From Eledone cirrhosa (Eukaryota), in contig OZ024740.1 of NCBI GenBank assembly GCA_964016885.1, positions 393,824,001 to 393,888,000 of the forward strand: a stretch of DNA of 64,000 nt, in the 5' to 3' direction. The notes beneath the pieces were generated by a model that saw nothing but the letters and a program-made list of their open reading frames with translations, was not told the DNA's origin and did not search any database. Position 1 is the stretch's first letter. The number at the start of each line of letters is the position of its first letter. The position numbers and the translations under genes were made by a program. Positions 12,284 through 58,378 of the stretch are shown one piece after another.

Positions 12284-12316
<33 letters not shown>
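12284..12316. repeat. (TGTC)n target microsatellite, left flank of the Tx1 array
   Basis: Direct reading. Confidence 0.95.
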
Positions 12317-12491
12317 GAGGATAGTAGACGTGTGTCATATCGCTCTGTGATTTGGATTTTTACCTGCTAATTTTGTGAGTGGATTTTTTTGAATTATTTT
12401 GTATAATTAACTGTAACCCCTAGTCTGGGACTCTAGACGTCGGGTAAATATATTTTCACCCCTTTTGGGGTGAAAAATAATTATTTGAGAA

Positions 12492-14243
12492 ATGTTTATC
12501 GATATCGTTGATAACGATATCGTCGAAAACGATATCGCCATATTGGAAGCGAACGCCACGCCGACCAAAAAAACAAGCGGGAAAGAGGGAACAACAGTTC
12601 AAACTGTTGAACAACCCCTCCTCTCCAATGAAAAAAAGAATTTCAATTCAAATGAAAAAATTAATTTTCAAGAAAAAAATAACACCACAAATAAGGAAAC
12701 CAACAACATTACAACAACAAACAAAGACAAAATTTCTTTTGCCCAAACACTCAAGAGAGCCACGGAGTACAAAGCCATTGACATCACGAACGCCAAGGAA
12801 AATTTGCTAGAGGCTAGAAAATACGTATCTTTTGGGGTGGATGGTTCTTTTACGATCAACTCCCCAGAAGAAGTGCGTGAACAGATTTACAAGAATACCG
12901 TAAGCTTCAGAACCATAACCAACGAAACGAGAAAGCCAGCGCAATTGACCGAAAGTCAAATCGAGCTGGTTCTGAAAGAAATTAAAAATGACATACTCTT
13001 TATTCAAAGAGGAAAGCTGTATGCCAGCATTATGGTCCGAATGAAGGACGAAATGCTGGCTCAGAAATATTCGGTGGCACCTATAGTGTCACCACAATAC
13101 ACCTTCTTCCCCACATATAAAGGAAGAAGAACACAAAGGATAAGAATGTGGAGCCCTACGCCAGAAATTAACATCTGGTCCGTCCTAACAGGATTTACCG
13201 ACCTAGATAAGGACATACTAATTTCAGCAGGGGAGTCCACCAGTGGACTGTTCGGGGGGAAAAGTCTGGAGGTTCTCTTACAGATGACACCTGAGAGAAT
13301 CTCCGGAATACCCGACCGAGTGCTACTGGATGGGCGAACCTACATAAATATCACAGTGGAAGGCAGGAGACCCTCATGTTACCACTGCGCTGGCAGAGGT
13401 CACCTGAGGACGGCCTGCCCTCTACTAACAACTAAAAAACCACTGCTACAAACACCACAACAACAACAAAAACAACCAGCACCACCATCACAAAAACAAC
13501 AAAATACACTACCATCTCCACCAGAACAACAAAAACCAACAACACCACCACCACCACAACAACAACAACATCAACAACAGCTCAAGAAAACAACCCAAAA
13601 CACGGTCCCACCCAGCCCCACCCCACAGAACACAAATACAAAAACAGTTCAGACACAACCCGGAGATATACCCCTCCCCTCCAATACGGAAGAGGAGCTC
13701 ATATCGTCGGAAGACGAGGGGGCTCCCTTCCAAAAAGTGAAAAGAAAAAAACGTACACACACCACAACAACAAAAATAACCCCACCTGACAACACAACAC
13801 AGACAATAAAACGCAAACTCACTCAACAACAACAAGCAAAAACAAACACAACAACACAAAAACTCTACACATACATAAACAAAAACAATGAAAACCTAAC
13901 TTTAAAAATAGAAACCAACCCTTCGATACAAACCGAAGGGCCGAATTTCGTAACGGCAATGGGGCTCCCTAACCTGAAAATGGTGAAAATCCCACTTGAC
14001 ATTTTTAAAACTTTAAAAGACATGTACCCTGAGGACGTGGGCCCACCCTGCACCAGGCCACTCAACCGCGTCCTCCTGAAAGGTTTTCCCCTCCCCTCCT
14101 CAAACACCCACACAACTCCAAAGATCCCAACCCCTCCACACACCAATACCCCCACACCACCACAAACCACCACCCCACCCATCAACCCCGCCACCAGCCC
14201 CATGGAAACTGAGCGACCCGAACCCCGGGACGCAGAGAGGTAA
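12492..14243 (+). CDS. LINE ORF1p (583 aa, CCHC zinc knuckle, Q/P/T-rich region)
   Basis: CYHCAGRGHLRTAC knuckle; upstream of ORF2; repeated in three copies. Confidence 0.9.
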   Translation: MFIDIVDNDIVENDIAILEANATPTKKTSGKEGTTVQTVEQPLLSNEKKNFNSNEKINFQEKNNTTNKETNNITTTNKDKISFAQTLKRATEYKAIDITNAKENLLEARKYVSFGVDGSFTINSPEEVREQIYKNTVSFRTITNETRKPAQLTESQIELVLKEIKNDILFIQRGKLYASIMVRMKDEMLAQKYSVAPIVSPQYTFFPTYKGRRTQRIRMWSPTPEINIWSVLTGFTDLDKDILISAGESTSGLFGGKSLEVLLQMTPERISGIPDRVLLDGRTYINITVEGRRPSCYHCAGRGHLRTACPLLTTKKPLLQTPQQQQKQPAPPSQKQQNTLPSPPEQQKPTTPPPPQQQQHQQQLKKTTQNTVPPSPTPQNTNTKTVQTQPGDIPLPSNTEEELISSEDEGAPFQKVKRKKRTHTTTTKITPPDNTTQTIKRKLTQQQQAKTNTTTQKLYTYINKNNENLTLKIETNPSIQTEGPNFVTAMGLPNLKMVKIPLDIFKTLKDMYPEDVGPPCTRPLNRVLLKGFPLPSSNTHTTPKIPTPPHTNTPTPPQTTTPPINPATSPMETERPEPRDAER

Positions 14244-14266
14244 GTGCCTCTTTCTTTGCCACCAAC

Positions 14267-17200
14267 ATGGCTGTCTTAAGAGTGGGTTGTCTAAATGCGC
14301 GTGGCCTGGGCTCACCTTGGAAGCAAGCTAAACTTCTAAGTGACCTCAGGTCACAATGTGTAAATGTGATGGTTATTTGCGAGGCCCGGATCAGCAGCAT
14401 GCGACAGCTAACCCCCACCTTTGATGACTTTGAGATGCACGCATCTCTCTGTCAGCCCGGAGGTGGGGGTGGGGTTGTCGTTCTGCTGCAAAAACATCTG
14501 GGTCTCGCTACACAGACGGTACACTTGGACCCGGAGGGTCGACTCGTGGTTCTGGACCTTGGCAATGGCGAAGGCGAAGCTTTTAGGCTTGTCGCCGTAT
14601 ACGCCCCTTTTGGGGCAATGCGGTCGGACTTCTTCCATCGTCTGGAGACTTTTCTAGGGACGTCCCGCTCCTTGCTTTTAGTGGGGGACTGGAATGGTAT
14701 CCTAGATGCACGTTGGGACTATGTAGGGGCATGTCCCGATAGAGGGGGGTGTAACAGCCTTAAGGGGTTAATCGGCCGATTCGACCTGGCCGATAGATAC
14801 CGACTAGATTTTCCGACTGTACCAACCTGGACCTGGTCAAATAACAGTGGTCAATCTAGATCGTACCTAGATAGGTTCTTAGTTAGAATTAAGGATAGGG
14901 ACTTTTTAAGTTGTCCAGAAATGCTCATGGTGGGCTATTCAGACCACAAGTTAGTGACCTGCGTAGTCCACCTTGATAGAACGCATAGGCAGGGGCCCGG
15001 TTACTGGAAGCTCAACTTGTCCTTACCGGCAAGTAGAGCTTACAGGGACCGGATTAGAACCTTAGTTAAGGAGCAGTTGACGGGCGCCATCGTCAACAAC
15101 AGGTGGTGGGGCTCTCTAAAAAGAGAGATTAGAGTAGTTTCAATAGGAGTTAGTAAGGAGTTAGCCTCAGATAGAAATAGGAAGGAAAGGGAGTTGGTAG
15201 TTAATGTTGAAGAGGCAATGAGAAGCGGCAACGTGGCCAGAGTGCAAGCGTCGAGAACGGTCTTGAACCAGTTCTTCGACGCGAAACACGAAGGCTGCGT
15301 TGTCCGAAGCAAAATACGTGCTCTGGGAAACGAGGGGACCAAAGCTGTTAGCTGGGCCCGCGTGACAGAAGCGAAAAGTGGGATTAAATCCACTATCCGG
15401 TCTTTGCGAGACCAGGATGGACGGCTGATCCTTGAACCTAAGCAAATGTGCGAGGCCTTTCAAAGGCACTTTGCCCAATTGTTCGGGAGGGGCGGGGAGC
15501 CGGTTGGAGATGTGGATTTCGGTCCATACCTCGACGGCCTGCCGCGTCTTTCGGACAGGGAGGCGAGGTCCTGCGACGGGCCGATCTCAGCTGCTGAAAT
15601 AGGGGACGTGCTGAGCCTATGCGGCAAACGCAAATCTCCAGGACTCGATGGTCTGCCCTACGAACTATATATTAATATGCCGGACTTGTTCCCCGATCTC
15701 CTCGAGGCGGTCTACTGCAACTGGCAACAGAACGGGAGAATTCCCTGTTCTGTGACCAAGGGCGTAGTCTCGCTAGTGAGGAAGGACGAGAACAAGGGGG
15801 ATGACATTAGTAATTTTAGGCCCATAACTCTGCTAAATGCAGAGTTAAAGATTTTGGCGAAGGTGTTAGCGAAGAGGTTGGCGCTTGTCGTGGGGGGCCT
15901 GGTGGGAGATGCGCAGACATGCGCTATCCCGTCCAGGTCCATCCACGACAACCTCCACCTCATGCGATACATCATAGAGAGGGTTGGGAACGAACCCGGC
16001 TTTGGTGGGGCCCTGATAAATTTAGATCAGTCTAAAGCGTTCGATAGGGTGGACCATGGTTACCTGGATGCGGTGCTAGCGGCGGCTGGGTTCGGACCCG
16101 TTTTCAGGGGCTGGATCACTGCCATGCACAGCAGCCGCATCTGCTCTAGAATCAAGGTGAACGGCTACCTTTCGGAGCCGTTCGAAATCACCCGCTCCAT
16201 CCGACAGGGGTGCCCTCTCTCCTCCCTTCTGTATGTATTGACTCTCGAGCCATTACTGCGGAAGTTGGAGTTGTTGCAGGGCATCCCTTTGGAACCGGGA
16301 TTGCGCAAAGCGGTGTCGGCCTACGCCGATGACGTAACAGTAATGGTGTCGACCGCCTCGGAAATCGAGGCGATCGGCACCTTACTAGAGGAGTACGAAA
16401 GGTTGACAGGGGCTAAGCTGAACCGGGACAAGTCAGTCGCTTTGCAACTCGGCGAGTGGAGGGGCAAAGCGATGTCGTGCGACGGTATCGTCGGACGGTG
16501 GACGGAGGGCCCGGTGAAGTTGCTTGGGGTCTGGTTCGGACCGGACCTCCAGGTGGAGAAAAACTGGGGTGAGGTGACGAATAGGGTGTTTGCACTGACC
16601 CAGAAGTGGGCCGAGTGCAAACTATCCCTAAAAGGTCGGGCGGAGGTGGCGAACGCTTACATAGCGTCCGTCATCTATTACCGCTTGACTGTCGTGCCTT
16701 GCCCGGGTGAGATCCTCGCCAAAATGGAGCGCGCCCTCTTTTATTTCCTTTGGAAGAAGAGGTCTCCTCTAGTGAGGAGATCCATCTGCTGTCAACACCC
16801 TTTGAAAGGAGGGCTGGGGATGCCGTGGCTAAAAATGCGTAAACACGCATTGAGGCTAAGGCACCTCCACGTATTCCTCACCGGTCAACCGGTGTGGGCC
16901 CCGTTTGTGAGGCGAGCCTTCCCGAGGCTCGTCTCGCTCACCGAGCTGCAGTCCTGGGTGAAGCAAAGACCGAGAAAACTGGGCGACTGGCACACCGAGT
17001 GTGCCCAGGCGCTCACGGCTCTCTGGCAGGCGGACCCGGCTATCGACGGAGACTCCACCTCGTCATTCTATAGAGGGCTGGTGGTTAGCGGGTGCGACGA
17101 CGCCCTCGGAGAAGCCCTAGGCATGGAGGAGGACGAACTGGCCAGTCTATTCGGTAGGACTTTCGACCCGGGACCTATGGACAACTTCCAGAAGTCCTTG

Positions 17201-17704
17201 GCCTGGCAGTGCTACCGAGGGGCTCTGCCCGTTCGGGATAAGCTCTACAGACACGGGCGCCCGGGTAGGGACCCCTCGAAAAAGATCTGTCCCAGATGCG
17301 TGCGCGACGAGGAAACCGTCGCGCACGCATTGGTGCACTGCCCGGGCGTTGCCGATCTGTGGGGCTATGTTGAACAACTGCTGTCACGGGTGGGACCAAT
17401 TAGGTTGACCACCGAGTCCATTGTAACGATCAAGCCGCCTCCCCCCTTCAAAAATGAAGGAGAGGCGGTCTTCCTCTGTGTAATAGCCATGGTAAAAGAG
17501 GCTATATGGTGGACGCGTCTGAAAGGGCTGAGGTCGGACACCTTTCTCTCCGGCCAACAACTGGTCCTTTTCTTCCGATACCATTTCGGAAGAAGGATCA
17601 GGATGGAGAGAGAGGTGCTCCACTCCAGCCAGTTTTATGAAAGGTGGGTGAAAGTTGCGAGAATGGCCCGTGTGAATGGGCCTTCTCTCTACCTCAGCCT
17701 GTAG
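14267..17704 (+). CDS. LINE ORF2p: AP endonuclease + reverse transcriptase + C-terminal CCHC (1145 aa)
   Basis: CLNARGL, GDWN, SDH (APE); KSPGLDGLP, FRPITLLN, LDQSKAFDRV, QGCPLS, YADD (RT); CPRC..ETVAHALVHC. Confidence 0.97.
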   Translation: MAVLRVGCLNARGLGSPWKQAKLLSDLRSQCVNVMVICEARISSMRQLTPTFDDFEMHASLCQPGGGGGVVVLLQKHLGLATQTVHLDPEGRLVVLDLGNGEGEAFRLVAVYAPFGAMRSDFFHRLETFLGTSRSLLLVGDWNGILDARWDYVGACPDRGGCNSLKGLIGRFDLADRYRLDFPTVPTWTWSNNSGQSRSYLDRFLVRIKDRDFLSCPEMLMVGYSDHKLVTCVVHLDRTHRQGPGYWKLNLSLPASRAYRDRIRTLVKEQLTGAIVNNRWWGSLKREIRVVSIGVSKELASDRNRKERELVVNVEEAMRSGNVARVQASRTVLNQFFDAKHEGCVVRSKIRALGNEGTKAVSWARVTEAKSGIKSTIRSLRDQDGRLILEPKQMCEAFQRHFAQLFGRGGEPVGDVDFGPYLDGLPRLSDREARSCDGPISAAEIGDVLSLCGKRKSPGLDGLPYELYINMPDLFPDLLEAVYCNWQQNGRIPCSVTKGVVSLVRKDENKGDDISNFRPITLLNAELKILAKVLAKRLALVVGGLVGDAQTCAIPSRSIHDNLHLMRYIIERVGNEPGFGGALINLDQSKAFDRVDHGYLDAVLAAAGFGPVFRGWITAMHSSRICSRIKVNGYLSEPFEITRSIRQGCPLSSLLYVLTLEPLLRKLELLQGIPLEPGLRKAVSAYADDVTVMVSTASEIEAIGTLLEEYERLTGAKLNRDKSVALQLGEWRGKAMSCDGIVGRWTEGPVKLLGVWFGPDLQVEKNWGEVTNRVFALTQKWAECKLSLKGRAEVANAYIASVIYYRLTVVPCPGEILAKMERALFYFLWKKRSPLVRRSICCQHPLKGGLGMPWLKMRKHALRLRHLHVFLTGQPVWAPFVRRAFPRLVSLTELQSWVKQRPRKLGDWHTECAQALTALWQADPAIDGDSTSSFYRGLVVSGCDDALGEALGMEEDELASLFGRTFDPGPMDNFQKSLAWQCYRGALPVRDKLYRHGRPGRDPSKKICPRCVRDEETVAHALVHCPGVADLWGYVEQLLSRVGPIRLTTESIVTIKPPPPFKNEGEAVFLCVIAMVKEAIWWTRLKGLRSDTFLSGQQLVLFFRYHFGRRIRMEREVLHSSQFYERWVKVARMARVNGPSLYLSL

Positions 17705-17924
17705 GTGGAACAGAAAGAAGGGAGCACCCCTCTTTGTACTCCCGTGGAGAAGGGTCGCACACTTTTTTCGGGGGTGTGTGTGATCCCAAAACGATCCCTC
17801 CCTATTGAGGATCTTCTTGTTATTATTTTGTTTGTTATATTTTTCTTACTCGATTTTTATGTAAACTCCCCCCACCCATGTACATGTCCCTTTCTTTTGT
17901 GCCCTAGTGGCAAATAAACAGAAA

Positions 17925-17956
<32 letters not shown>

Positions 17957-18130
17957 AGGATAGTAGACGTGTGTCATATCGCTCTGTGATTTGGATTTTT
18001 ACCTGCTAATTTTGTGAGTGGATTTTTTTGAATTATTTTGTATAATTAACTGTAACCCCTAGTCTGGGACTCTAGACGTCGGGTAAATATATTTTCACCC
18101 CTTTTGGGGTGAAAAATAATTATTTGAGAA

Positions 18131-19737
18131 ATGTTTATCGATATCGTTGATAACGATATCGTCGAAAACGATATCGCCATATTGGAAGCGAACGCCACGC
18201 CGACCAAAAAAACAAGCGGGAAAGAGGGAACAACAGTTCAAACTGTTGAACAACCCCTCCTCTCCAATGAAAAAAAGAATTTCAATTCAAATGAAAAAAT
18301 TAATTTTCAAGAAAAAAATAACACCACAAATAAGGAAACCAACAACATTACAACAACAAACAAAGACAAAATTTCTTTTGCCCAAACACTCAAGAGAGCC
18401 ACGGAGTACAAAGCCATTGACATCACGAACGCCAAGGAAAATTTGCTAGAGGCTAGGAAATACGTATCTTTTGGGGAGGATGGTTCTTTTACGATCAACT
18501 CCCCAGAAGAAGTGCGTGAACAGATTTACAAGAATACCGTAAGCTTCAGAACCATAACCAACGAAACGAGAAAGCCAGCGCAATTGACCGAAAGCCAAAT
18601 CGAGCTGGTTCTGAAAGAAATTAAAAATGACATACTCTTTATTCAAAGAGGAAAGCTGTATGCCAGCATTATGGTCCGAATGAAGGACGAAATGCTGGCT
18701 CAGAAATATTCGGTGGCACCTATAGTGTCACCACAATACACCTTCTTCCCCACATATAAAGGAAGAAGAACACAAAGGATAAGAATGTGGAGCCCTACGC
18801 CAGAAATTAACATCTGGTCCGTCCTAACAGGATTTACCGACCTAGATAAGGACATACTAATTTCAGCAGGGGAGTCCACCAGTGGACTGTTCGGGGGGAA
18901 AAGTCTGGAGGTTCTCTTACAGATGACACCTGAGAGAATCTCCGGAATACCCGACCGAGTGCTACTGGATGGGCGAACCTACATAAATATCACAGTGGAA
19001 GGCAGGAGACCCTCATGTTACCACTGCGCTGGCAGAGGTCACCTGAGGACGGCCTGCCCTCTACTAACAACTAAAAAACCACTGCTACAAACACCACAAC
19101 AACAACAAAAACAACCAGCACCACCTTCACAAAAACAACAAAATACACTACCATCTCCACCAGAACAACAAAAACCAACAACACCACCACCACCACCACC
19201 ACAACAACATCAACAACAGCTCTCTTCCAAAAAGTGAAAAGAAAAAAACGTACACACACCACAACAACAAAAATAACCCCACCTGACAACACAACACAGA
19301 CAATAAAACGCAAACTCACTCAACAACAACAAGCAAAAACAAACACAACACAAAAACTCTACACATACATAAACAAAAACAATGAAAACCTAACTTTTAA
19401 AATAGAAACCAACCCTTCGATACAAACCGAAGGGCCGAATTTTGTAACGGCAATGGGGCTCCCTAACCTGAAAATGGTGAAAATCCCACTTGACATTTTT
19501 AAAACTTTAAAAGACATGTACCCTGAGGACGTGGGCCCACCCTGCACCAGGCCACTCAACCGCGTCCTCCTGAAAGGTTTTCCCCTCCCCTCCTCAAACA
19601 CCCACACAACTCCAAAGATCCCAACCCCTCCACACACCAATACCCCCACACCACCACAAACCACCACCCCACCCATCAACCCCGCCACCAGCCCCATGGA
19701 AACTGAGCGACCCGAACCCCGGGACGCAGAGAGGTAA
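18131..19737 (+). pseudogene. ORF1 disrupted by a 142-bp deletion
   Basis: Split into 18131-19237 and 19234-19737; deletion joins GCTC microhomologies. Confidence 0.88.
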
Positions 19738-19760
19738 GTGCCTCTTTCTTTGCCACCAAC

Positions 19761-22700
19761 ATGGCTGTCTTAAGAGTAGGTTGTCTAAATGCGCGTGGCC
19801 TGGGCTCACCTTGGAAGCAAGCTAAACTTCTAAGTGACCTCAGGTCACAATGTGTAAATGTGATGGTTATTTGCGAGGCCCGGATCAGCAGCATGCGACA
19901 GCTAGCCCCCACCTTTGATAACTTTGAGATGCACGCATCTCTCTGTCAGCCTGGAGGTGGGGGTGGGGTTGTCGTTCTGCTGCAAAAACATCTGGGTCTC
20001 GCTACACAGACGGTACACTTGGACCCGGAGGGTCGACTAGTGGTTCTTGACCTTGGCAATGGCGAAGGCGAAGCTTTTAGGCTTGTCGCCGTATACGCCC
20101 CTTTTAGGGCAATGCGGTCGGACTTCTTCCATCGTCTGGAGACTTTTCTAGGGACGTCCCGCTCCTTGCTTTTAGTGGGGGACTGGAATGGTATCCTAGA
20201 TGCACGTTGGGACTATGTAGGGGCATGTCCCGATAGAGGGGGGTGTAACAGCCTTAAGGGGTTAATCGGCCGATTCGACCTGGCCGATAGATACCGACTA
20301 GATTTTCCGACTGTACCAACCTGGACCTGGTCAAATAACAGTGGTCAATCTAGATCGTACCTAGATAGGTTCTTAGTTAGAATTAAGGATAGGGACTTTT
20401 TAAGTTGTCCAGAAATGCTCATGGTGGGCTATTCAGACCACAAGTTAGTGACCTGCGTAGTCCACCTTGATAGAACGCATAGGCAGGGGCCCGGTTACTG
20501 GAAGCTCAACTTGTCCTTACCGGCAAGTAGAGCTTACAGGGACCGGATTAGAACCTTAGTTAAGGAGCAGTTGACGGGCGCCATCGTCAACAACAGGTGG
20601 TGGGGATCTCTAAAAAGAGAGATTAGAGTAGTTTCAATAGGAGTTAGTAAGGAGTTAGCCTCAGATAGAAATAGGAAGGAAAGGGAGTTGGTAGTTAATG
20701 TTGAAGAGGCAATGAGAAGCGGCAACGTGGCCAGAGTGCAAGCGTCGAGAACGGTCTTGAACCAGTTCTTCGACGCGAAACACGAAGGCTGCGTTGTCCG
20801 AAGCAAAATACGTGCTCTGGGAAACGAGGGGACCAAAGCTGTTAGCTGGGCCCGCGTGACAGAAGCGAAAAGTGGGATTAAATCCACTATCCGGTCTTTG
20901 CGAGACCAGGATGGACGGCTGATCCTTGAACCTAAGCAAATGTGCGAGGCCTTTCAAAGGCACTTTGCCGAATTGTTCGGGAGGGGCGGGGAGCCGGTTG
21001 GAGATGTGGATTTCGGTCCATACCTCGACGGCCTGCCGCGTCTTTCGGACAGGGAGGCGAGGTCCTGCGACGGGCCGATCTCAGCGGCTGAAATAGGGGA
21101 CGTGCTGAGCCTATGCGGCAAACGCAAATCTCCAGGACTCGATGGTCTGCCCTACGAACTATATATTAATATGCCGGACTTGTTCCCCGATCTCCTCGAG
21201 GCGGTCTACTGCAACTGGCAACAGAACGGGAGAATTCCCTGTTCTGTGACCAAGGGCGTAGTCTCGCTAGTGAGGAAGGACGAGAACAAGGGGGATGACA
21301 TTAGTAATTTTAGGCCCATAACTCTGCTAAATGCAGAGTTAAAGATTTTGGCGAAGGTGTTAGCGAAGAGGTTGGCGCTTGTCGTGGGGGGCCTGGTGGG
21401 AGATGCGCAGACATGCGCTATCCCGTCCAGGTCCATCCACGACAACCTCCACCTCATGCGATACATCATAGAGAGGGTTGGGAACGAACCCGGCTTTGGT
21501 GGGGCCCTGATAAATTTAGATCAGTCTAAAGCGTTCGATAGGGTGGACCATGTTTACCTGGATGCGGTGCTAGCGGCGGCTGGGTTCGGACCCGTTTTCA
21601 GGGGCTGGATCACTGCCATGCACAGCAGCCGCATCTGCTCTAGAATCAAGGTGAACGGCTACCTTTCGGAGCCGTTCGAAATCACCCGCTCCATCCGACA
21701 GGGGTGCCCTCTCTCCTCCCTTCTGTATGTGTTGACTCTCGAGCCATTACTGCGGAAGTTGGAGTTGTTGCAGGGCATCCCTTTGGAACCGGGATTGCGC
21801 AAAGCGGTGTCGGCCTACGCCGATGACGTAACAGTAATGGTGTCGACCGCCTCGGAAATCGAGGCAATCGGCACCTTACTAGAGGAGTACGAAAGGTTGA
21901 CAGGGGCTAAGCTGAACCGGGACAAGTCAGTCGCTTTGCAACTCGGCGAGTGGAGGGGCAAAGCGATGTCGTGCGACGGTATCGTCGGACGGTGGACGGA
22001 GGGCCCGGTGAAGTTGCTTGGGGTCTGGTTCGGACCGGACCTCCAGGTGGAGAAAAACTGGGGTGAGGTGACGAATAGGGTGTTTGCACTGACCCAGAAG
22101 TGGGCCGAGTGCAAACTATCCCTAAAAGGTCGGGCGGAGGTGGCGAACGCTTACATAGCGTCCGTCATCTATTACCGCTTGACTGTCGTGCCTTGCCCGG
22201 GTGAGATCCTCGCCAAAATGGAGCGCGCCCTCTTTTATTTCCTTTGGAAGAAGAGGTCTCCTCTAGTGAGGAGATCCATCTGCTGTCAACACCCTTTGAA
22301 AGGAGGGCTGGGGATGCCGTGGCTAAAAATGCGTAAACACGCATTGAGGCTAAGGCACCTCCACGTATTCCTCACCGGTCAACCGGTGTGGGCCCCGTTT
22401 GTGAGGCGAGCCTTCCCGAGGCTCGTCTCGCTCACCGAGCTGCAGTCCTGGGTGAAGCAAAGACCGAGAAAACTGGGCGACTGGCACACCGAGTGTGCCC
22501 AGGCGCTCACGGCTCTCTGGCAGGCGGACCCGGCTATCGACGGAGACTCCACCTCGTCATTCTATAGAGGGCTGGTGGTTAGCGGGTGCGACGACGCCCT
22601 CGGAGAAGCCCTAGGCATGGAGGAGGACGAACTGGCCAGTCTATTCGGTAGGACTTTCGGCCCGGGACCTATGGACAACTTCCAGAAGTCCTTGGCCTGG

Positions 22701-23144
22701 CAGTGCTACCGAGGGGCTCTGCCCGTTCGGGATAAGCTCTACAGACACGGGCGCCCGGGTAGGGACCCCTCGAAAAAGATCTGTCCCAGATGCGTGCGCG
22801 ACGAGGAAACCGTCGCGCACGCATTGGTGCACTGCCCGGGCGTTGCCGATCTGTGGGGCTATGTTGAACAACTGCTGTCACGGGTGGGACCAATTAGGTT
22901 GACCACCGAGTCCATTGTAACGATCAAGCCGCCTCCCCCCTTCAAAAATGAAGGAGAGGCGGTCTTCCTCTGTGTAATAGCCATGGTAAAAGAGGCTATA
23001 TGGTGGACGCGTCTGAAAGGGCTGAGGTCGGACACCTTTCTCTCCGGCCAACAACTGGTCCTTTTCTTCCGATACCATTTCGGAAGAAGGATCAGGATGG
23101 AGAGAGAGGTGCTCCACTCCAGCCAGTTTATGAAAGGTGGGTGA
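19761..23144 (+). CDS. ORF2p (APE-RT), C-terminus altered by a 1-nt deletion near 23127
   Basis: Same motifs as copy 1; CAGTTTATG versus CAGTTTTATG. Confidence 0.88.
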   Translation: MAVLRVGCLNARGLGSPWKQAKLLSDLRSQCVNVMVICEARISSMRQLAPTFDNFEMHASLCQPGGGGGVVVLLQKHLGLATQTVHLDPEGRLVVLDLGNGEGEAFRLVAVYAPFRAMRSDFFHRLETFLGTSRSLLLVGDWNGILDARWDYVGACPDRGGCNSLKGLIGRFDLADRYRLDFPTVPTWTWSNNSGQSRSYLDRFLVRIKDRDFLSCPEMLMVGYSDHKLVTCVVHLDRTHRQGPGYWKLNLSLPASRAYRDRIRTLVKEQLTGAIVNNRWWGSLKREIRVVSIGVSKELASDRNRKERELVVNVEEAMRSGNVARVQASRTVLNQFFDAKHEGCVVRSKIRALGNEGTKAVSWARVTEAKSGIKSTIRSLRDQDGRLILEPKQMCEAFQRHFAELFGRGGEPVGDVDFGPYLDGLPRLSDREARSCDGPISAAEIGDVLSLCGKRKSPGLDGLPYELYINMPDLFPDLLEAVYCNWQQNGRIPCSVTKGVVSLVRKDENKGDDISNFRPITLLNAELKILAKVLAKRLALVVGGLVGDAQTCAIPSRSIHDNLHLMRYIIERVGNEPGFGGALINLDQSKAFDRVDHVYLDAVLAAAGFGPVFRGWITAMHSSRICSRIKVNGYLSEPFEITRSIRQGCPLSSLLYVLTLEPLLRKLELLQGIPLEPGLRKAVSAYADDVTVMVSTASEIEAIGTLLEEYERLTGAKLNRDKSVALQLGEWRGKAMSCDGIVGRWTEGPVKLLGVWFGPDLQVEKNWGEVTNRVFALTQKWAECKLSLKGRAEVANAYIASVIYYRLTVVPCPGEILAKMERALFYFLWKKRSPLVRRSICCQHPLKGGLGMPWLKMRKHALRLRHLHVFLTGQPVWAPFVRRAFPRLVSLTELQSWVKQRPRKLGDWHTECAQALTALWQADPAIDGDSTSSFYRGLVVSGCDDALGEALGMEEDELASLFGRTFGPGPMDNFQKSLAWQCYRGALPVRDKLYRHGRPGRDPSKKICPRCVRDEETVAHALVHCPGVADLWGYVEQLLSRVGPIRLTTESIVTIKPPPPFKNEGEAVFLCVIAMVKEAIWWTRLKGLRSDTFLSGQQLVLFFRYHFGRRIRMEREVLHSSQFMKGG

Positions 23145-23630
23145 AAGTTGCGAGAATGGCCCGTGTGAATGGGCCTTCTCTCTACCTCAGCCTGTAGGTG
23201 GAACAGAAAGAAGGGAGCACCCTCTCTTTGTGCTCCCGTGGAGAAGGGTCGCACACTTTTTTTCGGGGGTGTGTGTGACCCCAAAACGATCCCTCCCCTA
23301 TTGAGGACCTTCTTGTTATTATTTTGTTTGTTATATTTTTCTTACTCGATTTTTATGTAAACTCCCCCCACCCATGTACATGTCCCTTTCTTTTGTGCCC
23401 TAGTGGCAAATAAACAGAAATTTGTCTGTCTGTCTGTCTGCCTGGCTGTCTGTCTGAGGATAGTAGACGTGTGTCATATCGCTCTGTGATTTGGATTTTT
23501 ACCTGCTAATTTTGTGAGTGGATTTTTTTGAATTATTTTGTATAATTAACTGTAACCCCTAGTCTGGGACTCTAGACGTCGGGTAAATATATTTTCACCC
23601 CTTTTGGGGTGAAAAATAAATATTTGAGAA

Positions 23631-25382
23631 ATGTTTATCGATATCGTTGATAACGATATCGTCGAAAACGATATCGCCATATTGGAAGCGAACGCCACGC
23701 CGACCAAAAAAACAAGCGGGAAAGAGGGAACAACAGTTCAAACTGTTGAACAACCCCTCCTCTCCAATGAAAAAAAGAATTTCAATTCAAATGAAAAAAT
23801 TAATTTTCAAGAAAAAAATAACACCACAAATAAGGAAACCAACAACATTACAACAACAAACAAAGACAAAATTTCTTTTGCCCAAACACTCAAGAGAGCC
23901 ACGGAGTACAAAGCCATTGACATCACGAACGCCAAGGAAAATTTGCTAGAGGCTAGAAAATACGTATCTTTTGGGGTGGATGGTTCCTTTACGATCAACT
24001 CCCCAGAAGAAGTGCGTGAACAGATTTACAAGAATACCGTAAGCTTCAGAACCATAACCAACGAAACGAGAAAGCCAGCGCAATTGACCGAAAGTCAAAT
24101 CGAGCTGGTTCTGAAAGAAATTAAAAATGACATACTCTTTATTCAAAGAGGAAAGCTGTATGCCAGCATTATGGTCCGAATGAAGGACGAAATGCTGGCT
24201 CAGAAATATTCGGTGGCACCTATAGTGTCACCACAATACACCTTCTTCCCCACATATAAAGGAAGAAGAACACAAAGGATAAGAATGTGGAGCCCTACGC
24301 CAGAAATTAACATCTGGTCCGTCCTAACAGGATTTACCGACCTAGATAAGGACATACTAATTTCAGCAGGGGAGTCCACCAGTGGACTGTTCGGGGGGAA
24401 AAGTCTGGAGGTTCTCTTACAGATGACACCTGAGAGAATCTCCGGAATACCCGACCGAGTGCTACTGGATGGGCGAACCTACATAAATATCACAGTGGAA
24501 GGCAGGAGACCCTCATGTTACCACTGCGCTGGCAGAGGTCACCTGAGGACGGCCTGCCCTCTACTAACAACTAAAAAACCACTGCTACAAACACCACAAC
24601 AACAACAAAAACAACCAGCACCACCATCACAAAAACAACAAAATACACTACCATCTCCACCAGAACAACAAAAACCAACAACACCACCACCACCACAACA
24701 ACAACAACATCAACAACAGCTCAAGAAAACAACCCAAAACACGGTCCCACCCAGCCCCACCCCACAGAACACAAATACAAAAACAGTTCATACACAACCC
24801 GGAGATATACCCCTCCCCTCCAATACGGAAGAGGAGCTCATATCGTCGGAAGACGAGGGGGCTCCCTTCCAAAAAGTGAAAAGAAAAAAACGTACACACA
24901 CCACAACAACAAAAATAACCCCACCTGACAACACAACACAGACAATAAAACGCAAACTCACTCAACAACAACAAGCAAAAACAAACACAACAACACAAAA
25001 ACTCTACACATACATAAACAAAAACAATGAAAACCTAACTTTAAAAATAGAAACCAACCCTTCGATACAAACCGAAGGGCCGAATTTCGTAACGGCAATG
25101 GGGCTCCCTAACCTGAAAATGGTGAAAATCCCACTTGACATTTTTAAAACTTTAAAAGACATGTACCCTGAGGACGTGGGCCCACCCTGCACCAGGCCAC
25201 TCAACCGCGTCCTCCTGAAAGGTTTTCCCCTCCCCTCCTCAAACACCCACACAACTCCAAAGATCCCAACCCCTCCACACACCAATACCCCCACACCACC
25301 ACAAACCACCACCCCACCCATCAACCCCGCCACCAGCCCCATGGAAACTGAGCGACCCGAACCCCGGGACGCAGAGAGGTAA
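23631..25382 (+). CDS. LINE ORF1p (583 aa)
   Basis: Matches copy 1 ORF1 except VHTQ versus VQTQ. Confidence 0.9.
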   Translation: MFIDIVDNDIVENDIAILEANATPTKKTSGKEGTTVQTVEQPLLSNEKKNFNSNEKINFQEKNNTTNKETNNITTTNKDKISFAQTLKRATEYKAIDITNAKENLLEARKYVSFGVDGSFTINSPEEVREQIYKNTVSFRTITNETRKPAQLTESQIELVLKEIKNDILFIQRGKLYASIMVRMKDEMLAQKYSVAPIVSPQYTFFPTYKGRRTQRIRMWSPTPEINIWSVLTGFTDLDKDILISAGESTSGLFGGKSLEVLLQMTPERISGIPDRVLLDGRTYINITVEGRRPSCYHCAGRGHLRTACPLLTTKKPLLQTPQQQQKQPAPPSQKQQNTLPSPPEQQKPTTPPPPQQQQHQQQLKKTTQNTVPPSPTPQNTNTKTVHTQPGDIPLPSNTEEELISSEDEGAPFQKVKRKKRTHTTTTKITPPDNTTQTIKRKLTQQQQAKTNTTTQKLYTYINKNNENLTLKIETNPSIQTEGPNFVTAMGLPNLKMVKIPLDIFKTLKDMYPEDVGPPCTRPLNRVLLKGFPLPSSNTHTTPKIPTPPHTNTPTPPQTTTPPINPATSPMETERPEPRDAER

Positions 25383-25405
25383 GTGCCTCTTTCTTTGCCA
25401 CCAAC

Positions 25406-28400
25406 ATGGCTGTCTTAAGAGTGGGTTGTCTAAATGCGCGTGGCCTGGGCTCACCTTGGAAGCAAGCTAAACTTCTAAGTGACCTCAGGTCACAATGTGT
25501 AAATGTGATGGTTATTTGCGAGGCCCGGATCAGCAGCATGCAACAGCTAACCCCCACCTTTGATGACTTTGAGATGCACGCATCTCTCTGTCAGCCCGGA
25601 GGTGGGGGTGGGGTTGTCGTTCTGCTGCAAAAACATCTGGGTCTCGCTACACAGACGGTACACTTGGACCCGGAGGGTCGACTCGTGGTTCTGGACCTTG
25701 GCAATGGCGAAGGCGAAGCTTTTAGGCTTGTCGCCGTATACGCCCCTTTTGGGGCAATGCGGTCGGACTTCTTCCATCGTCTGGAGACTTTTCTAGGGAC
25801 GTCCCGCTCCTTGCTTTTAGTGGGGGACTGGAATGGTATCCTAGATGCACGTTGGGACTATGTAGGGGCATGTCCCGATAGAGGGGGGTGTAACAGCCTT
25901 AAGGGGTTAATCGGCCGATTCGACCTGGCCGATAGATACCGACTAGATTTTCCGACTGTACCAACCTGGACCTGGTCAAATAACAGTGGTCAATCTAGAT
26001 CGTACCTAGATAGGTTCTTAGTTAGAATTAAGGATAGGGACTTTTTAAGTTGTCCAGAAATGCTCATGGTGGGCTATTCAGACCACAAGTTAGTGACCTG
26101 CGTAGTCCACCTTGATAGAACGCATAGGCAGGGGCCCGGTTACTGGAAGCTCAACTTGTCCTTACCGGCAAGTAGAGCCTACAGGGACCGGATTAGAACC
26201 TTAGTTAAGGAGCAGTTGACGGGCGCCATCGTCAACAACAGGTGGTGGGGCTCTCTAAAAAGAGAGATTAGAGTAGTTTCAATAGGAGTTAGTAAGGAGT
26301 TAGCCTCAGATAGAAATAGGAAGGAAAGGGAGTTGGTAGTTAATGTTGAAGAGGCAATGAGAAGCGGCAACGTGGCCAGAGTGCAAGCGTCGAGAACGGT
26401 CTTGAACCAGTTCTTCGACGCGAAACACGAAGGCTGCGTTGTCCGAAGCAAAATACGTGCTCTGGGAAACGAGGGGACCAAAGCTGTTAGCTGGGCCCGC
26501 GTGACAGAAGCGAAAAGTGGGATTAAATCCACTATCCGGTCTTTGCGAGACCAGGATGGACGGCTGATCCTTGAACCTAAGCAAATGTGCGAGGCCTTTC
26601 AAAGGCACTTTGCCGAATTGTTCGGGAGGGGCGGGGAGCCGGTTGGAGATGTGGATTTCGGTCCATACCTCGACGGCCTGCCGCGTCTTTCGGACGGGGA
26701 GGCGAGGTCCTGCGACGGGCCGATCTCAGCTGCTGAAATAGGGGACGTGCTGAGCCTATGCGGCAAACGCAAATCTCCAGGACTCGATGGTCTGCCCTAC
26801 GAACTATATATTAATATGCCGGACTTGTTCCCCGATCTCCTCGAGGCGGTCTACTGCAACTGGCAACAGAACGGGAGAATTCCCTGTTCTGTGACCAAGG
26901 GCGTAGTCTCGCTAGTGAGGAAGGACGAGAACAAGGGGGATGACATTAGTAATTTTAGGCCCATAACTCTGCTAAATGCAGAGTTAAAGATTTTGGCGAA
27001 GGTGTTAGCGAAGAGGTTGGCGCTTGTCGTGGGGGGCCTGGTGGGAGATGCGCAGACATGCGCTATCCCGTCCAGGTCCATCCACGACAACCTCCACCTC
27101 ATGCGATACATCATAGAGAGGGTTGGGAACGAACCCGGCTTTGGTGGGGCCCTGATAAATTTAGATCAGTCTAAAGCGTTCGATAGGGTGGACCATGGTT
27201 ACCTGGATGCGGTGCTAGCGGCGGCTGGGTTCGGACCCGTTTTCAGGGGCTGGATCACTGCCATGCACAGCAGCCGCATCTGCTCTAGAGTCAAGGTGAA
27301 CGGCTACCTTTCGGAGCCGTTCGAAATCACCCGCTCCATCCGACAGGGGTGCCCTCTCTCCTCCCTTCTGTATGTGTTGACTCTCGAGCCATTACTGCGG
27401 AAGTTGGAGTTGTTGCAGGGCATCCCTTTGGAACCGGGATTGCGCAAAGCGGTGTCGGCCTACGCCGATGACGTAACAGTAATGGTGTCGACCGCCTCGG
27501 AAATCGAGGCGATCGGCACCTTACTAGAGGAGTACGAAAGGTTGACAGGGGCTAAGCTGAACCGGGACAAGTCAATCGCTTTGCAACTCGGCGAGTGGAG
27601 GGGCAAAGCGATGTCGTGCGACGGTATCGTCGGACGGTGGACGGAGGGCCCGGTGAAGCTGCTTGGGGTCTGGTTCGGACCGGACCTCCAGGTGGAGAAA
27701 AACTGGGGTGAGGTGACGAATAGGGTGTTTGCACTGACCCAGAAGTGGGCCGAGTGCAAACTATCCCTAAAAGGTCGGGCGGAGGTGGCGAACGCTTACA
27801 TAGCGTCCGTCATCTATTACCGCTTGACTGTCGTGCCTTGCCCGGGTGAGATCCTCGCCAAAATGGAGCGCGCCCTCTTTTATTTCCTTTGGAAGAAGAG
27901 GTCTCCTCTAGTGAGGAGATCCATCTGCTGTCAACACCCTTTGAAAGGAGGGCTGGGGATGCCGTGGCTAAAAATGCGTAAACACGCATTGAGGCTAAGG
28001 CACCTCCACGTATTCCTCACCGGTCAACCGGTGTGGGCCCCGTTTGTGAGGCGAGCCTTCCCGAGGCTCGTCTCGCTCACCGAGCTGCAGTCCTGGGTGA
28101 AGCAAAGACCGAGAAAACTGGGCGACTGGCACACCGAGTGTGCCCAGGCGCTCACGGCTCTCTGGCAGGCGGACCCGGCTATCGACGGAGACTCCACCTC
28201 GTCATTCTATAGAGGGCTGGTGGTTAGCGGGTGCGACGACGCCCTCGGAGAAGCCCTAGGCATGGAGGAGGACGAACTGGCCAGTCTATTCGGTAGGACT
28301 TTCGGCCCGGGACCTATGGACAACTTCCAGAAGTCCTTGGCCTGGCAGTGCTACCGAGGGGCTCTGCCCGTTCGGGATAAGCTCTACAGACACGGGCGCC

Positions 28401-28843
28401 CGGGTAGGGACCCCTCGAAAAAGATCTGTCCCAGATGCGTGCGCGACGAGGAAACCGTCGCGCACGCATTGGTGCACTGCCCGGGCGTTGCCGATCTGTG
28501 GGGCTATGTTGAACAACTGCTGTCACGGGTGGGACCAATTAGGTTGACCACCGAGTCCATTGTAACGATCAAGCCGCCTCCCCCCTTCAAAAATGAAGGA
28601 GAGGCGGTCTTCCTCTGTGTAATAGCCATGGTAAAAGAGGCTATATGGTGGACGCGTCTGAAAGGGCTGAGGTCGGACACCTTTCTCTCCGGCCAACAAC
28701 TGGTCCTTTTCTTCCGATACCATTTCGGAAGAAGGATCAGGATGGAGAGAGAGGTGCTCCACTCCAGCCAGTTTTATGAAAGGTGGGTGAAAGTTGCGAG
28801 AATGGCCCGTGTGAATGGGCCTTCTCTCTACCTCAGCCTGTAG
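25406..28843 (+). CDS. LINE ORF2p APE-RT-CCHC (1145 aa)
   Basis: All catalytic motifs intact. Confidence 0.97.
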   Translation: MAVLRVGCLNARGLGSPWKQAKLLSDLRSQCVNVMVICEARISSMQQLTPTFDDFEMHASLCQPGGGGGVVVLLQKHLGLATQTVHLDPEGRLVVLDLGNGEGEAFRLVAVYAPFGAMRSDFFHRLETFLGTSRSLLLVGDWNGILDARWDYVGACPDRGGCNSLKGLIGRFDLADRYRLDFPTVPTWTWSNNSGQSRSYLDRFLVRIKDRDFLSCPEMLMVGYSDHKLVTCVVHLDRTHRQGPGYWKLNLSLPASRAYRDRIRTLVKEQLTGAIVNNRWWGSLKREIRVVSIGVSKELASDRNRKERELVVNVEEAMRSGNVARVQASRTVLNQFFDAKHEGCVVRSKIRALGNEGTKAVSWARVTEAKSGIKSTIRSLRDQDGRLILEPKQMCEAFQRHFAELFGRGGEPVGDVDFGPYLDGLPRLSDGEARSCDGPISAAEIGDVLSLCGKRKSPGLDGLPYELYINMPDLFPDLLEAVYCNWQQNGRIPCSVTKGVVSLVRKDENKGDDISNFRPITLLNAELKILAKVLAKRLALVVGGLVGDAQTCAIPSRSIHDNLHLMRYIIERVGNEPGFGGALINLDQSKAFDRVDHGYLDAVLAAAGFGPVFRGWITAMHSSRICSRVKVNGYLSEPFEITRSIRQGCPLSSLLYVLTLEPLLRKLELLQGIPLEPGLRKAVSAYADDVTVMVSTASEIEAIGTLLEEYERLTGAKLNRDKSIALQLGEWRGKAMSCDGIVGRWTEGPVKLLGVWFGPDLQVEKNWGEVTNRVFALTQKWAECKLSLKGRAEVANAYIASVIYYRLTVVPCPGEILAKMERALFYFLWKKRSPLVRRSICCQHPLKGGLGMPWLKMRKHALRLRHLHVFLTGQPVWAPFVRRAFPRLVSLTELQSWVKQRPRKLGDWHTECAQALTALWQADPAIDGDSTSSFYRGLVVSGCDDALGEALGMEEDELASLFGRTFGPGPMDNFQKSLAWQCYRGALPVRDKLYRHGRPGRDPSKKICPRCVRDEETVAHALVHCPGVADLWGYVEQLLSRVGPIRLTTESIVTIKPPPPFKNEGEAVFLCVIAMVKEAIWWTRLKGLRSDTFLSGQQLVLFFRYHFGRRIRMEREVLHSSQFYERWVKVARMARVNGPSLYLSL

Positions 28844-29065
28844 GTGGAACAGAAAGAAGGGAGCACCCTCTCTTTGTGCTCCCGTGGAGAAGGGTCGCAC
28901 ACTTTTTTTCGGGGGTGTGTGTGACCCCAAAACGATCCCTCCCTATTGAGGACCTTCTTGTTACTATTTTGTTTGTTATATTTTTCTTACTCGATTTTTA
29001 TGTAAACTCCCCCCACCCATGTACATGTCCCTTTCTTTTGTGCCCTAGTGGCAAATAAACAGAAA

Positions 29066-29067
<2 letters not shown>

Positions 29068-29136
<69 letters not shown>
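29068..29136. repeat. (TGTC)n, right flank of the Tx1 array
   Basis: Direct reading. Confidence 0.95.
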
Positions 29137-39202: not shown

Positions 39203-42200
39203 ATGTTTCTTTATTAGCCACAGGGGCACAAAAGAAGGGAACAAATACAAATGGGGAAATTTACATACAATAAAAACGTGTAAAATATTATCACAAATGC
39301 AATTTAAAAATTAGTCGATTTTCCCCAATAGGGGGAGACATTACATATGGGTAACACATACCCCCCGAAAAAAAAATGTGCAACCCTCATCTCCAGGAGT
39401 ACGAAGAGTTTGTACTCCCTTCCTCGCCTCCTCTTTTCCCTCAACCTACAGGCTGATATAGAGAGAAGGCCCATTCCCTCGGGCCATTCTCGCCACTTTC
39501 ACCCACCTTTCATAAAACTTGCTGGGGGACAGCACCGCTCTCTCCATCCTGATTCTTCTTCCAAAGTGGTATTTGAAAAAAAGAATCAGTTGTTGGCCGG
39601 AGAGAAAGGTGTCTGACCTCAGCCCTTTCAACCTTGTCCACCATACAACCTCTTTCGCCATAGCTATCACACAAAGGAAAACCACCTCTCCTTCGTTTTT
39701 GAAGGAGGGTGGCGGTTTGATCATGACAATGGACTCGGTGGTTAACCGGATTGGTCCCACCCGCGACAATAGTCGTTTCACATAGCCCCACAGGTCGGTG
39801 ACGCCCAGAGTTTTACCGAGCACGTTGTCGCACTTGCTGCGGATCAACCCTCTATAGAATGACGAAGTGGAGTCTCCACTGATCGCTGGGTCCGCCTGCC
39901 AGAGGGCTGTGAGCGCCTGAGCACATTCGATGTGCCAGTCGCCCATTTTCCTCGGTCTTTGCTTGACCTAGGACTGCAGCTCGGTCAGCGAGACGAGTCG
40001 TGGGAAGACTCGCCTCACGAATGGGGCCCACACCGGTTGTTCGGTGAGGAATACGTAGAGATGCCGCAGCCTGAGCGCGTGTTTGCGCATCGTCAGCCAC
40101 GACATCCCCACCCCTCCGTTGGGAGGGTGTTGGCAGCAGATGGATCTTCTCACGAAAGGAGCCCGCCTCTTCCAAAGGAATTGGAGGAGCGCGCGCTCCA
40201 TTTTGGCGAGCGTTTTGGCTGGACAAGGCACAACGGTCAAGCGGTAGTAGATAGCGGTAGTAAAGACCGAATGGTGGACTTGTTGCCACCTTTGGCCTCC
40301 GTCACTCGGGCCCAGCTAACAGCTTTGGCTCCCTCGTTTCCCAGAGCACGTATTTTGCTTCTGAAAAACGTAGCCCTCATGCTTTGCGTCGAAGAACTGG
40401 TCCAAGGCCGTTCTCGTTGCTAGCACGCTGGCTACGTTGCCACTTCTAATTGCCTCTTCTACTTTATCTCCCAGTTCTTTCTCGGTTCTATTTCTATTTA
40501 ACGTTAATTCTTTACTAAAAACTAACGAGTCGAATCTAACTGCCCTCTTGAGAGAGTACCACCTTCTGTTGTTGACAATGGCCCCTGTCAAGTGCTGTTT
40601 AACTAAAGTGCTAATCCGTCTACTGTAGGCTTTGCATGTCGGTAACGACAAGTTTAGCTTCCAGTAGCCGGGTCCTTGTCTATGGGTTCTATCAAGGTTG
40701 ACTATGCAGATCACTAGTTTGTGATCTGAATAGGCAACCATGAACATTTGTGGACAGCTTAACATGACCCTATCCTTATTTCTAACTAGAACCCTATCTA
40801 GGTACGATCTAGATGTTCCACTGCGATTAGCCCACGTCCACAGTGGCACAGTCGGAAAATCTAGTCGATATCTATCGGCCAGGTCAAATCGGCCAATTAA
40901 CTGTTTGAGGATTTTACACCCCCCCCCTTTATCGGGACGTGCTCCCACATAGTCCCAACGTGCATCTAGGATTCCATTCCAGTCCCCCACTAAAAGCAAG
41001 GAGCGGGACGTTCACAGATAAGTCTCTAGACGCTTGAAGAAGTCTGGCCGCGGTGTCCCGGATGGGGCATATGCGGCCACCAGTCTGAAGGCTCCACCTT
41101 CACTACCGTCAACGTCTAGGACCACCAGTCGACCCTCCGGATCCAGATGTACTGTCTTTGTTACGAGGCCCAGGTGTTTCCGCAGCAAAACGGCAACCCC
41201 GCCCCCTCCCCTCGGCCGACAGAGAGATGCGTAGATCTCAAAGTCATTGAAGATGGGGGTCAGCTGTCGCTCGCTGTGGCTCCTAGACTCACAAATGGCT
41301 ACTACATCCATACTGTTCGACCTGAGGTCGTTTAAGGGTTTTCCCTGTTTCCAGGGCATCCCCAGGCCGCGTACATTCACACACCCAACTCTTATATTGG
41401 CCATGTTGGTTCTGAAAAGTTAAAAGAGGAGAAGAAAACACTCACCTCTTCGTCTTCCGGGGACCAGGCCGCACGGTTTCCATGGGGGTGTTAGAGGGGT
41501 TGTCTGGGTGGGTGGTGGTTTCCGGCGGAGTGGGGACGGAGATGTTTGGTGGGGTTGGGGTGTCTGGGATGGGTGTGTCTGGGGTGAGGCTGGGGAAACT
41601 TTTTAAAAGGACGCGGTTAATGGGTTTAACACAAGGATTACCCACGTCCTTAGGAAAGTTTTGCTTTAAAGATTTATAGGTGTCCGTAGGGAGCCTAATC
41701 ATCTTTAAATTAGGTTTGTCTACACATTTCGACAAAGTTTTCCCTTCGGTTTTCACCGAAGGGTCGTTGGAGATGACCTCCATTAAAGTTTTGTTTTTAC
41801 TCTTTATGTATGTGTAATGTTCTTGTGTTGCGGTGGTTTTTGTCTGTTGTTCTTGTGGGAGCTTTCGTTTTGTTGTAGGTGTTTGTGTTTGGAGTGATGT
41901 CGTGGTTTTGTTTTCGGGACGGGGGGTTTTTGTTTGTAATGTTTGTGTTGTTTGTGTTGGTGGTTGTATGTTTGTAGTGATATGTGTTGTTTTTTTGTTC
42001 TTGTGGTGTCTTTTCTTCTTTCTTTTCGAACGGAGAGGCTCTCCCTCATCATCACTTGGTGTCTGTGTTATTTGGAAGGGGTATGTTTTGGGAAGCTGTT
42101 CTGTTTGTGGGTGTTTTTGCAGTGGCTTTAGGTGGAGTGGGGTTGGGTGGGACTGTGCTTTCATGTTTGTTTGTTGTTCTTGATTTGGTTGTGTTTGCTT

Positions 42201-42962: not shown

Positions 42963-43060
42963 GCTAAGTCCTTTGCAAGGCTAAAAAATCACATTCATGT
43001 CATCCATGCACGAGAAAAGCGCAAGTGATGGCAATTCTCGAAATTATGATGCAGCCATCA
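42963..43060 (+). mobile_element. 3' tip of an RTE related to the 33.9 kb element
   Basis: KSFARLKNHIHVIH resembles the last finger RSLAGLKSHIRSQH; then GATGGCAATTCTCG..GCAGCCATCAT and TATGTATG. Confidence 0.55.

Positions 43061-57758: not shown

Positions 57759-57759
<1 letters not shown>
52915..57759 (+). mobile_element. Tx1 family B copy, truncated in ORF1 and frameshifted, in (TATC)n
   Basis: CYHCLSSGHLKAYC knuckle, APE and RT fragments (54931-56571 with YADD), AATAAAGAAACAT then (ATCT)n. Confidence 0.93.
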
Positions 57760-57830
<71 letters not shown>

Positions 57831-57831
<1 letters not shown>

Positions 57832-58140: not shown

Positions 58141-58164
58141 ATCTATCTATCTATCTATCTATCT

Positions 58165-58352: not shown

Positions 58353-58378
58353 CTATCCATCTATCTAGCTAGTTATCT

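Follow-up and report, generated by a model that had tools for sequence, protein, structure and literature searches.

The 64,000-nt window analysed here (Eledone cirrhosa assembly GCA_964016885.1, contig OZ024740.1, positions 393,824,001 to 393,888,000; all coordinates below refer to this stretch) contains three long interspersed nuclear elements (LINEs) arranged head-to-tail within a TGTC microsatellite (Table 1). Each copy is 5.5-5.6 kb long. All three start on the same base, with GAGGATAG, and finish on the same terminus, AATAAACAGAAATT, and none of them ends in poly(A). TGTC tracts of 33, 29, 33 and 69 nt lie before, between and after the copies, and one base at each junction can be assigned to either element or repeat. 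An initial annotation of this sequence had described three full-length LINEs with the same ends, no poly(A) and TGTC spacers of 29 and 33 nt, and both the coordinates and the sequence bear this out. The tract in front of copy 1 is likely the original target. Outside the element blocks (35,934 nt), pure TRTC/GAYA tracts (R, A or G; Y, C or T) of at least five units (20 nt) occur only once and TGTC tracts not at all; with tracts so rare, the association between element and TGTC at this locus is not a matter of chance. The window's (TTC)31 and (CT)64 tracts hold no copy of the family. The window gave no Rfam match, and neither an RNA-gene target nor a ribozyme was found in it.

Table 1. Position of the LINE copies, their reading frames and the associated repeat tracts in the window.
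Feature	Position	Strand	Remarks
(TGTC)8T tract before copy 1	12284..12316	+	No element 3' end upstream of tract
Copy 1	12317..17926	+	Full-length LINE, 5610 nt
Copy 1 ORF1	12492..14243	+	583 aa; RNA-binding-like region, then weak CCHC knuckle (aa 295-310)
Copy 1 ORF2	14267..17704	+	1145 aa; APE endonuclease, RT (YADD), C-terminal zinc finger
AATAAA of copy 1	17913..17918	+	14 nt upstream of unique end; no poly(A) after
Spacer 1	17927..17955	+	29 nt, pure TGTC
Copy 2	17956..23422	+	Retains both ends; 142-nt deletion disrupts ORF1, frameshift near end of ORF2
Spacer 2	23423..23455	+	33 nt TGTC, interrupted by TGCC and TGGC units
Copy 3	23456..29067	+	Full-length; ORF1 and ORF2 intact
Copy 3 ORF1	23631-25382	+	Intact, 583 aa
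Copy 3 ORF2	25406-28843	+	Intact, 1145 aa
(TGTC)17 tract after copy 3	29068..29136	+	
Sister copy B	39203..43000	-	Decayed, internal deletion; 5' boundary approximate
TATC stack	52859..60157	+	Sister A 52916-57758, fragment E 57832-58139, sister C 58378-59778, fragment D 59803-60104

Copies 1 and 3 keep both open reading frames (ORFs) intact and the middle copy is the most damaged, as initially annotated. In copy 2, deletions remove 142 nt from ORF1 (at 4-nt microhomology), a further 3 nt, and 1 nt close to the end of ORF2, leaving frames of 368 and 1127 aa. In ORF2, the Pfam domains Exo_endo_phos (28.6 bits) and RVT_1 (94.1 bits) both score above cut-off, zf-RVT falls slightly below it (26.3 bits against 27.5), and the catalytic motifs are in place in the alignment. 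The order of an N-terminal apurinic/apyrimidinic-like endonuclease (APE), a reverse transcriptase (RT) and a C-terminal zinc finger is that expected for Tx1, a layout common to L1 and hence not diagnostic alone; the match of ORF2 to human L1 ORF2 has an E value of 8e-51. Tx1 ORF1 proteins typically contain RNA-binding domains and a CCHC knuckle. The zf-CCHC match in ORF1 is below cut-off (E 0.025-0.067), and Atlas leads of 0.89-0.91 point to CCHC-, RRM- and ZCCHC3-like clusters.

We found 84 related proteins, the best named one being from Argonauta hians (64% identity over 59% of the query), followed in similarity by about 55 unnamed proteins at 37-43%. The Argonauta match by itself points to a likely octopod host. 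For an RT tree, 72 rows were chosen from 120, of which three were missing and 69 were built. The tree has no named Tx1, Keno, Kibi, Koshi or L1 rows, and five U2-flanked loci and one 5S-flanked locus served as proxies for Tx1; gene targets of these kinds mark Keno and Mutsu. The element groups with its octopod relatives (support 1.0), and this group is sister (0.998) to a lineage of about 40% identity from an assembly filed as bacterial, which we call G001 and describe below. Both groups fall among the U2/5S-flanked loci, with backbone supports of 0.2-0.76. The element is likely a Tx1-like APE-RT LINE; the initial placement in Tx1 itself is unproven, given a weak backbone and a tree without named Tx1 or L1 rows. 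Five distant relatives (26-28%; L001, L003, L004, L007 and L013) adjoin U2 snRNA sequence, and L017 adjoins 5S rRNA. The 86 distant loci include one possible further microsatellite target, (ATTG)9 at the end of L048, and none in TGTC or TATC. Scans for the 3'-end pattern in metagenome and viral contigs gave 0 matches, and a protein scan of the viral contigs gave 0 relatives.

Sister subfamilies form a second stack in the window, this time in TATC repeats. It consists, in order, of a degenerate TATC tract, sister A, (TATC)18, fragment E, (TATC)6, an unrelated hairpin repeat, sister C, (TATC)5, fragment D and a TATC/TGTC tract. All four members are 5'-truncated and 75-85% like copy 1. Where different subfamilies align they are only 72-76% alike, and duplication therefore cannot have made this stack. 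A further sister copy, B, is 66-82% identical to copy 1 and 93-96% identical to sister A. In total, TRTC follows 7/8 of the 3' ends that the family has in the window, at two of the three loci, and poly(A) follows none of the eight. At both TRTC loci, the tract is also present upstream of the first copy, in the same orientation. From these flanks, the target preference looks like TRTC with misses. The hairpin loop of the endonuclease affects target choice (PMC1950540); it reads SNNSGQ in copy 1 versus TSRGGT or ANRSGT in the TATC sisters, at an endonuclease identity of 76-80%. This difference may offer a testable lead, though the sisters are decayed.

Some further features accompany these ends. 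An identical 26-nt interrupted TATC stretch occurs at 52875-52900 and 58353-58378, flanking sister A and the later inserts, and is possibly an old, long target duplication. The repeat inside the TATC stack (58166-58352) terminates in a 110-nt hairpin that is almost perfect (z -13 when folded as DNA) and has relatives at 7603-7805, 45461-45566 and 62289-62483. A conserved 3' hairpin in the octopod copies themselves is unsupported, as only one of five 3' ends in the window folds better than its shuffles (z -2.2; the rest -0.7 to 0.4).

To what extent could the three copies be duplicates of one another? Copies 1 and 3 differ by substitutions at 16/5610 sites, copies 1 and 2 at 26/5464, and copies 2 and 3 at 29/5466. 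The differences are unevenly placed; copies 2 and 3 differ at 21/2955 sites in the 5' part, while in the 3' part copy 2 differs from copy 1 at 4/1405 sites and from copy 3 at 1/1407. Unequal crossover between two copies X and Y yields X, a Y5'/X3' hybrid and Y, so that the middle copy resembles the last copy in its 5' part and the first in its 3' part. Copy 2 displays the reverse pattern, and the junctions are not alike on either side or in the spacer; a single tandem duplication thus does not fit. Private substitutions had been offered in the initial annotation as evidence for separate insertions. By themselves they are none, since among three sequences any site with two alleles necessarily sets one copy apart from the others. 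When sister copies in the window were used as outgroups, the lone copy's letter was found in at least one sister at 13 of the 30 sites that have an outgroup letter, with conflicting patterns; at 78% identity homoplasy is likely, and this polarisation is suggestive only. In copy 2, 11/20 coding substitutions are synonymous, against 0.23-0.30 expected if neutral (p 0.002-0.017), and for all copies together the figure is 15/31 (p 0.002-0.024). Such an excess points to divergence under selection in a source lineage, and favours separate insertions.

Sequencing reads show how these variants are distributed in the family. We used four runs (X1, X4, X5 and X13) and the best 40 of 1355 variant rows, with repeats masked; restriction site-associated DNA (RAD) reads and contigs are biased samples, and contigs drop rare variants. 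Three of the four runs have the copy 2 letter as the family's majority allele at 12838 (all depth in X1 and X4, 46/53 reads in X13); X5 has no cover there. An extra T at 17729, found in copies 2 and 3 and absent from copy 1, accounts for 1039/1846 of the depth in X1. Being common in the reads, these are family variants rather than local mutations, and copy 2 at least appears to derive from another source lineage. Judged by the reads, the three copies nonetheless resemble one another more closely than they do most of the family. Three members of one small sublineage at one site call for a local cause, as independent hits among many free tracts would be insufficient; candidates are a favoured target next to a copy already present, one multi-template event, and local amplification. 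In two runs, depth over ORF1 is in the hundreds or thousands and over ORF2 reaches hundreds of thousands (summed at 88% likeness, and not a copy number), showing that truncated and sister copies are abundant and that full length is not the rule genome-wide. A contig from a second species aligns with the 5' flank over 12049-12277, at 16 differences, and breaks off 30 letters beyond, and there is almost no depth on the element's 5' end; this contig hints that the repeat at the site might predate the insertions.

A scan of prokaryotic genomes provided a comparison. Of the 44 loci found, 38 came from a single assembly, G001, filed as a bacterial metagenome-assembled genome. It contains 85 matches to the LINE ORF2, in long arrays amid AT-rich, microsatellite-bearing DNA (contigs C3-C19; loci L081-L117 and L124-L159), and we infer that this DNA is eukaryotic host contamination. 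The relative shares 41% ORF2 identity with the window element; its ORF1 passes the zf-CCHC cut-off (21.3 vs 20.8) and aligns with the window ORF1 at E 3e-11. We located 64 3' ends on 15 contigs (37 stretches), with up to 13 in succession. Among the 57 that lead into another copy, 53 meet an intact 5' end, three a clearly truncated one and one a doubtful one; of the remainder, three close an array and four have too little sequence. Each of the 64 is followed by a subfamily-specific spacer of 15-18 nt, beginning at most 3 nt from AATAAA, with at least eight different spacers in this genome and neither microsatellite nor poly(A) between copies. The spacer is also present before the first copy in two of the five arrays with a visible start, namely C6 and C17, where 16/18 letters in C17 agree with the final spacer. 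Within arrays, copies alternate between ORF1 subtypes that are 45-99% alike. Full-length stacking so appears to be a trait of the lineage, and the initial remark that three full-length copies out of three are unusual was overstated. Both insertion and duplication have shaped these arrays, which the binning of G001 may favour by selecting array-rich contigs. The relative has a short inverted repeat upstream of AATAAA, and the C19 junction at 87012 has a fold-back of the preceding 3' end. A telomeric role for the stacks was rejected; the surroundings of the array in the window and 20 scanned stretches of G001 showed no telomeric repeat.

Our preferred explanation, to which we assign a probability of roughly 0.6, is that a young two-ORF LINE, likely of Tx1 type, inserted three separate times in the TGTC tract, its endonuclease nicking TRTC and each insertion leaving a fresh TGTC target. 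The APE domain would nick the GACA strand, and the transcript would extend past AATAAA into the UGUC repeat. Cleavage typically takes place 10-30 nt downstream of AATAAA, and with this signal 14 nt before the unique end, the RNA end would fall in the UGUC run. It could then pair with the nicked GACA strand and prime reverse transcription without a poly(A) being copied, which would account for the missing poly(A). Repeats at the RNA 5' end may pair likewise and produce the exact 5' junction, as proposed for melanogaster-type R1. Target-primed insertion would renew the target each time, as in R1 arrays (PMC2718515). A free tract is probably a poorer target than the repeat adjoining a copy already in place, and this would explain three close relatives at one site. 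The repeated site-specific insertion initially suggested is thus upheld in part; separate origins fit better than one recent duplication and the TGTC association is clear, but independent hits alone do not suffice, given the minor alleles common to all three copies.

Several observations weigh against this explanation. Alleles common to the three copies are minor in X13 at 12441 (6/33), 12754 (17/49) and 12767 (18/47 reads). At 13767-8, the allele of all three copies has a depth of about 21/2231 in X1, close to what three single copies at a depth of 6 each would give. The absence of a C after 14252, again common to all three, is also minor in the reads. Such alleles fit local amplification equally well. 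Copies 1 and 3 have no synonymous excess (4/11, p 0.24-0.43). Copy 2 has no private substitution in its last 1557 columns (p about 0.0015), which shows that copies have exchanged sequence; between copies 2 and 3 the final 1.4 kb was probably exchanged, by gene conversion or through a recombinant source. A target duplication is not measurable inside a repeat, and the variant units 10 nt upstream of copy 3 are not repeated downstream. Sister B lacks a TRTC tract on either side; of the GACA/TGTC specificity initially proposed, the association with the TGTC tract stands at the array, and a strict form is at odds with sisters in TATC and one in neither. In G001, the spacer before the first copy is only partial in three of five arrays (C3, C4 and C19), and C15 holds a 19.6-kb higher-order duplication at 99.5%.

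In a rival account, which we consider unlikely, one or two real insertions in the TGTC tract were amplified locally by unequal exchange and then scrambled by gene conversion with other family copies. The shared minor alleles, the difference of only 0.3% between copies 1 and 3 without synonymous excess, the nearly identical 3' 1.4 kb of copies 2 and 3 and the higher-order duplication in the G001 relative's arrays are all consistent with such amplification. However, the hybrid middle copy expected from a single crossover is absent, the spacers differ, copy 2 has synonymous-rich changes and family-majority alleles, and the mixed-subfamily TATC stack is left unexplained.

It is less probable again that the TGTC runs are mainly the element's RNA tail, with the stack written in one event by an RT that, on reaching the 5' end of one RNA, jumps onto the next RNA at its 3' tail, in which case the endonuclease need not be strictly specific. 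End-to-end jumping has been cited for R2 (PMC2718515), and spacers of 29 and 33 nt fit cleavage shortly past AATAAA. Such an event would account for three members of one young sublineage at one site, but copy 2 is of a different, more damaged lineage and the TATC stack unites subfamilies of very different decay. Features of the G001 arrays also agree with jumping (spacer variants common to several contigs, three of five starts without a full spacer, and truncated copies after complete 3' ends), while the TGTC tract before copy 1, which has no element end, and the TATC tract before the second stack do not. It is very improbable that the array arose in assembly, with haplotypes or dispersed copies wrongly joined at the microsatellite; no contig or read bridges the array in any of the four runs and the copies are >99% alike, but they have distinct, internally consistent variants and different spacers, their flanks are not duplicated, and a like architecture recurs in the window's second stack and in the independent G001 assembly.

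Separate insertion into a repeat has precedents. Tx1 families are known on TC (Kibi), TTC (Koshi) and crocodilian TTCC/TTTC repeats (PMC4494074, PMC3812793), and a Tx1 family is counted as target-specific when >20% of its copies genome-wide are flanked by one sequence type (PMC4494074). Like these, the window element is an APE LINE in a short-unit repeat whose sense unit ends in TC, with related families on slightly different units. Unlike (TC)n for Kibi and (TTC)n for Koshi, its unit is TGTC (TATC in the sisters), its host is an invertebrate and it forms full-length stacks. It also differs from vertebrate-type L1, with its poly(A) tail and T-rich nick site, in that all eight 3' ends in the window lack poly(A). 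The insect elements Waldo and Mino belong to the R1 clade. Both are APE elements, on ACAY and AC respectively (PMC3812793), and Waldo likewise occupies a tetranucleotide repeat with one variable base, though unit and host differ.

The stacking itself is known for R1, which forms tandem arrays separated by a 14-bp duplication in Drosophila 28S ribosomal DNA (PMC2718515); tandem insertion at a target has also been noted for Utopia (PMC4640811). As in R1 arrays, the copies here are head-to-tail with a copy of the target between them (TGTC here, 15-18 nt in G001), and the precise 5' junctions of R1 are ascribed to target sequence on the RNA. R1, however, belongs to another clade and occupies one ribosomal DNA site with a measurable 14-bp duplication, whereas the target here is a repeat. 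Young, near-full-length Tx1-like LINEs also occur in Octopus vulgaris, with 13 recently active L1-Tx1 families and 421 near-full-length insertions (PMC13282606). The window family or a sister may be among these, and the accessible part of that study reports no target preference or stacking. We found no literature on a TGTC/GACA-directed LINE, although one may exist in Repbase reports, in Kojima and Fujiwara 2004 or in figures and supplements, all outside our coverage. The accessible text of PMC8869645, PMC8967140 and PMC13708176 has nothing on a TGTC or TATC target.

Other repeats are also present in the window. At 33786-37415 (+), between (ATGT)13 and (GT)16, lies the intact 1209-aa frame of another LINE (APE, RT and C-terminal C2H2 fingers), which we take to be RTE-like. 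Sequences at 32758-33119 recur at 37965-38319, with 252 nt of these inverted at 98%. Decayed fragments of another RTE-like LINE lie at 50937-52191 (-). A repeat of about 190 nt, resembling a short interspersed nuclear element, has many copies (1-4557, 9553-9782, 30922-31233, 46440-46654, 48916-49012 and 50217-50481), some in tandem or inverted pairs, and an 82-nt direct repeat occurs at 11438 and 11905.

In genome work, stacks such as these look like satellites or errors of assembly, and binning can wrongly place them with bacterial DNA, as in G001. An APE element that is site-directed and mostly full-length would have practical uses, although a microsatellite is a multicopy and unstable target. 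In the available sections of a gene-writing review, the native APE platforms (from L2, RTE and Vingi) are random and Tx1 is not mentioned (PMC13708176). Perhaps the lineage even seeds its own target, its transcript running a fixed short way past AATAAA, carrying the flanking target and writing a new optimal site beside each copy. We regard this as doubtful. If true, target choice would be set largely by an RNA tail that changes fast (TATC to TGTC in octopods, and at least eight spacers in the G001 relative), and an APE retrotransposon with precise, full-length cargo insertion could be re-aimed by changing its tail. The element is in any case a further microsatellite-associated Tx1-like LINE, on TGTC/TATC rather than TC, TTC, TTCC or TTTC, that stacks as R1 does; it is real and useful, and not a new kind. 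With it, TGTC/TATC joins the repeats that Tx1-like LINEs are known to hit, and its two intact, very young copies, together with the TATC sister, make a compact pair for separating the shares of APE enzyme and RNA tail in target selection.

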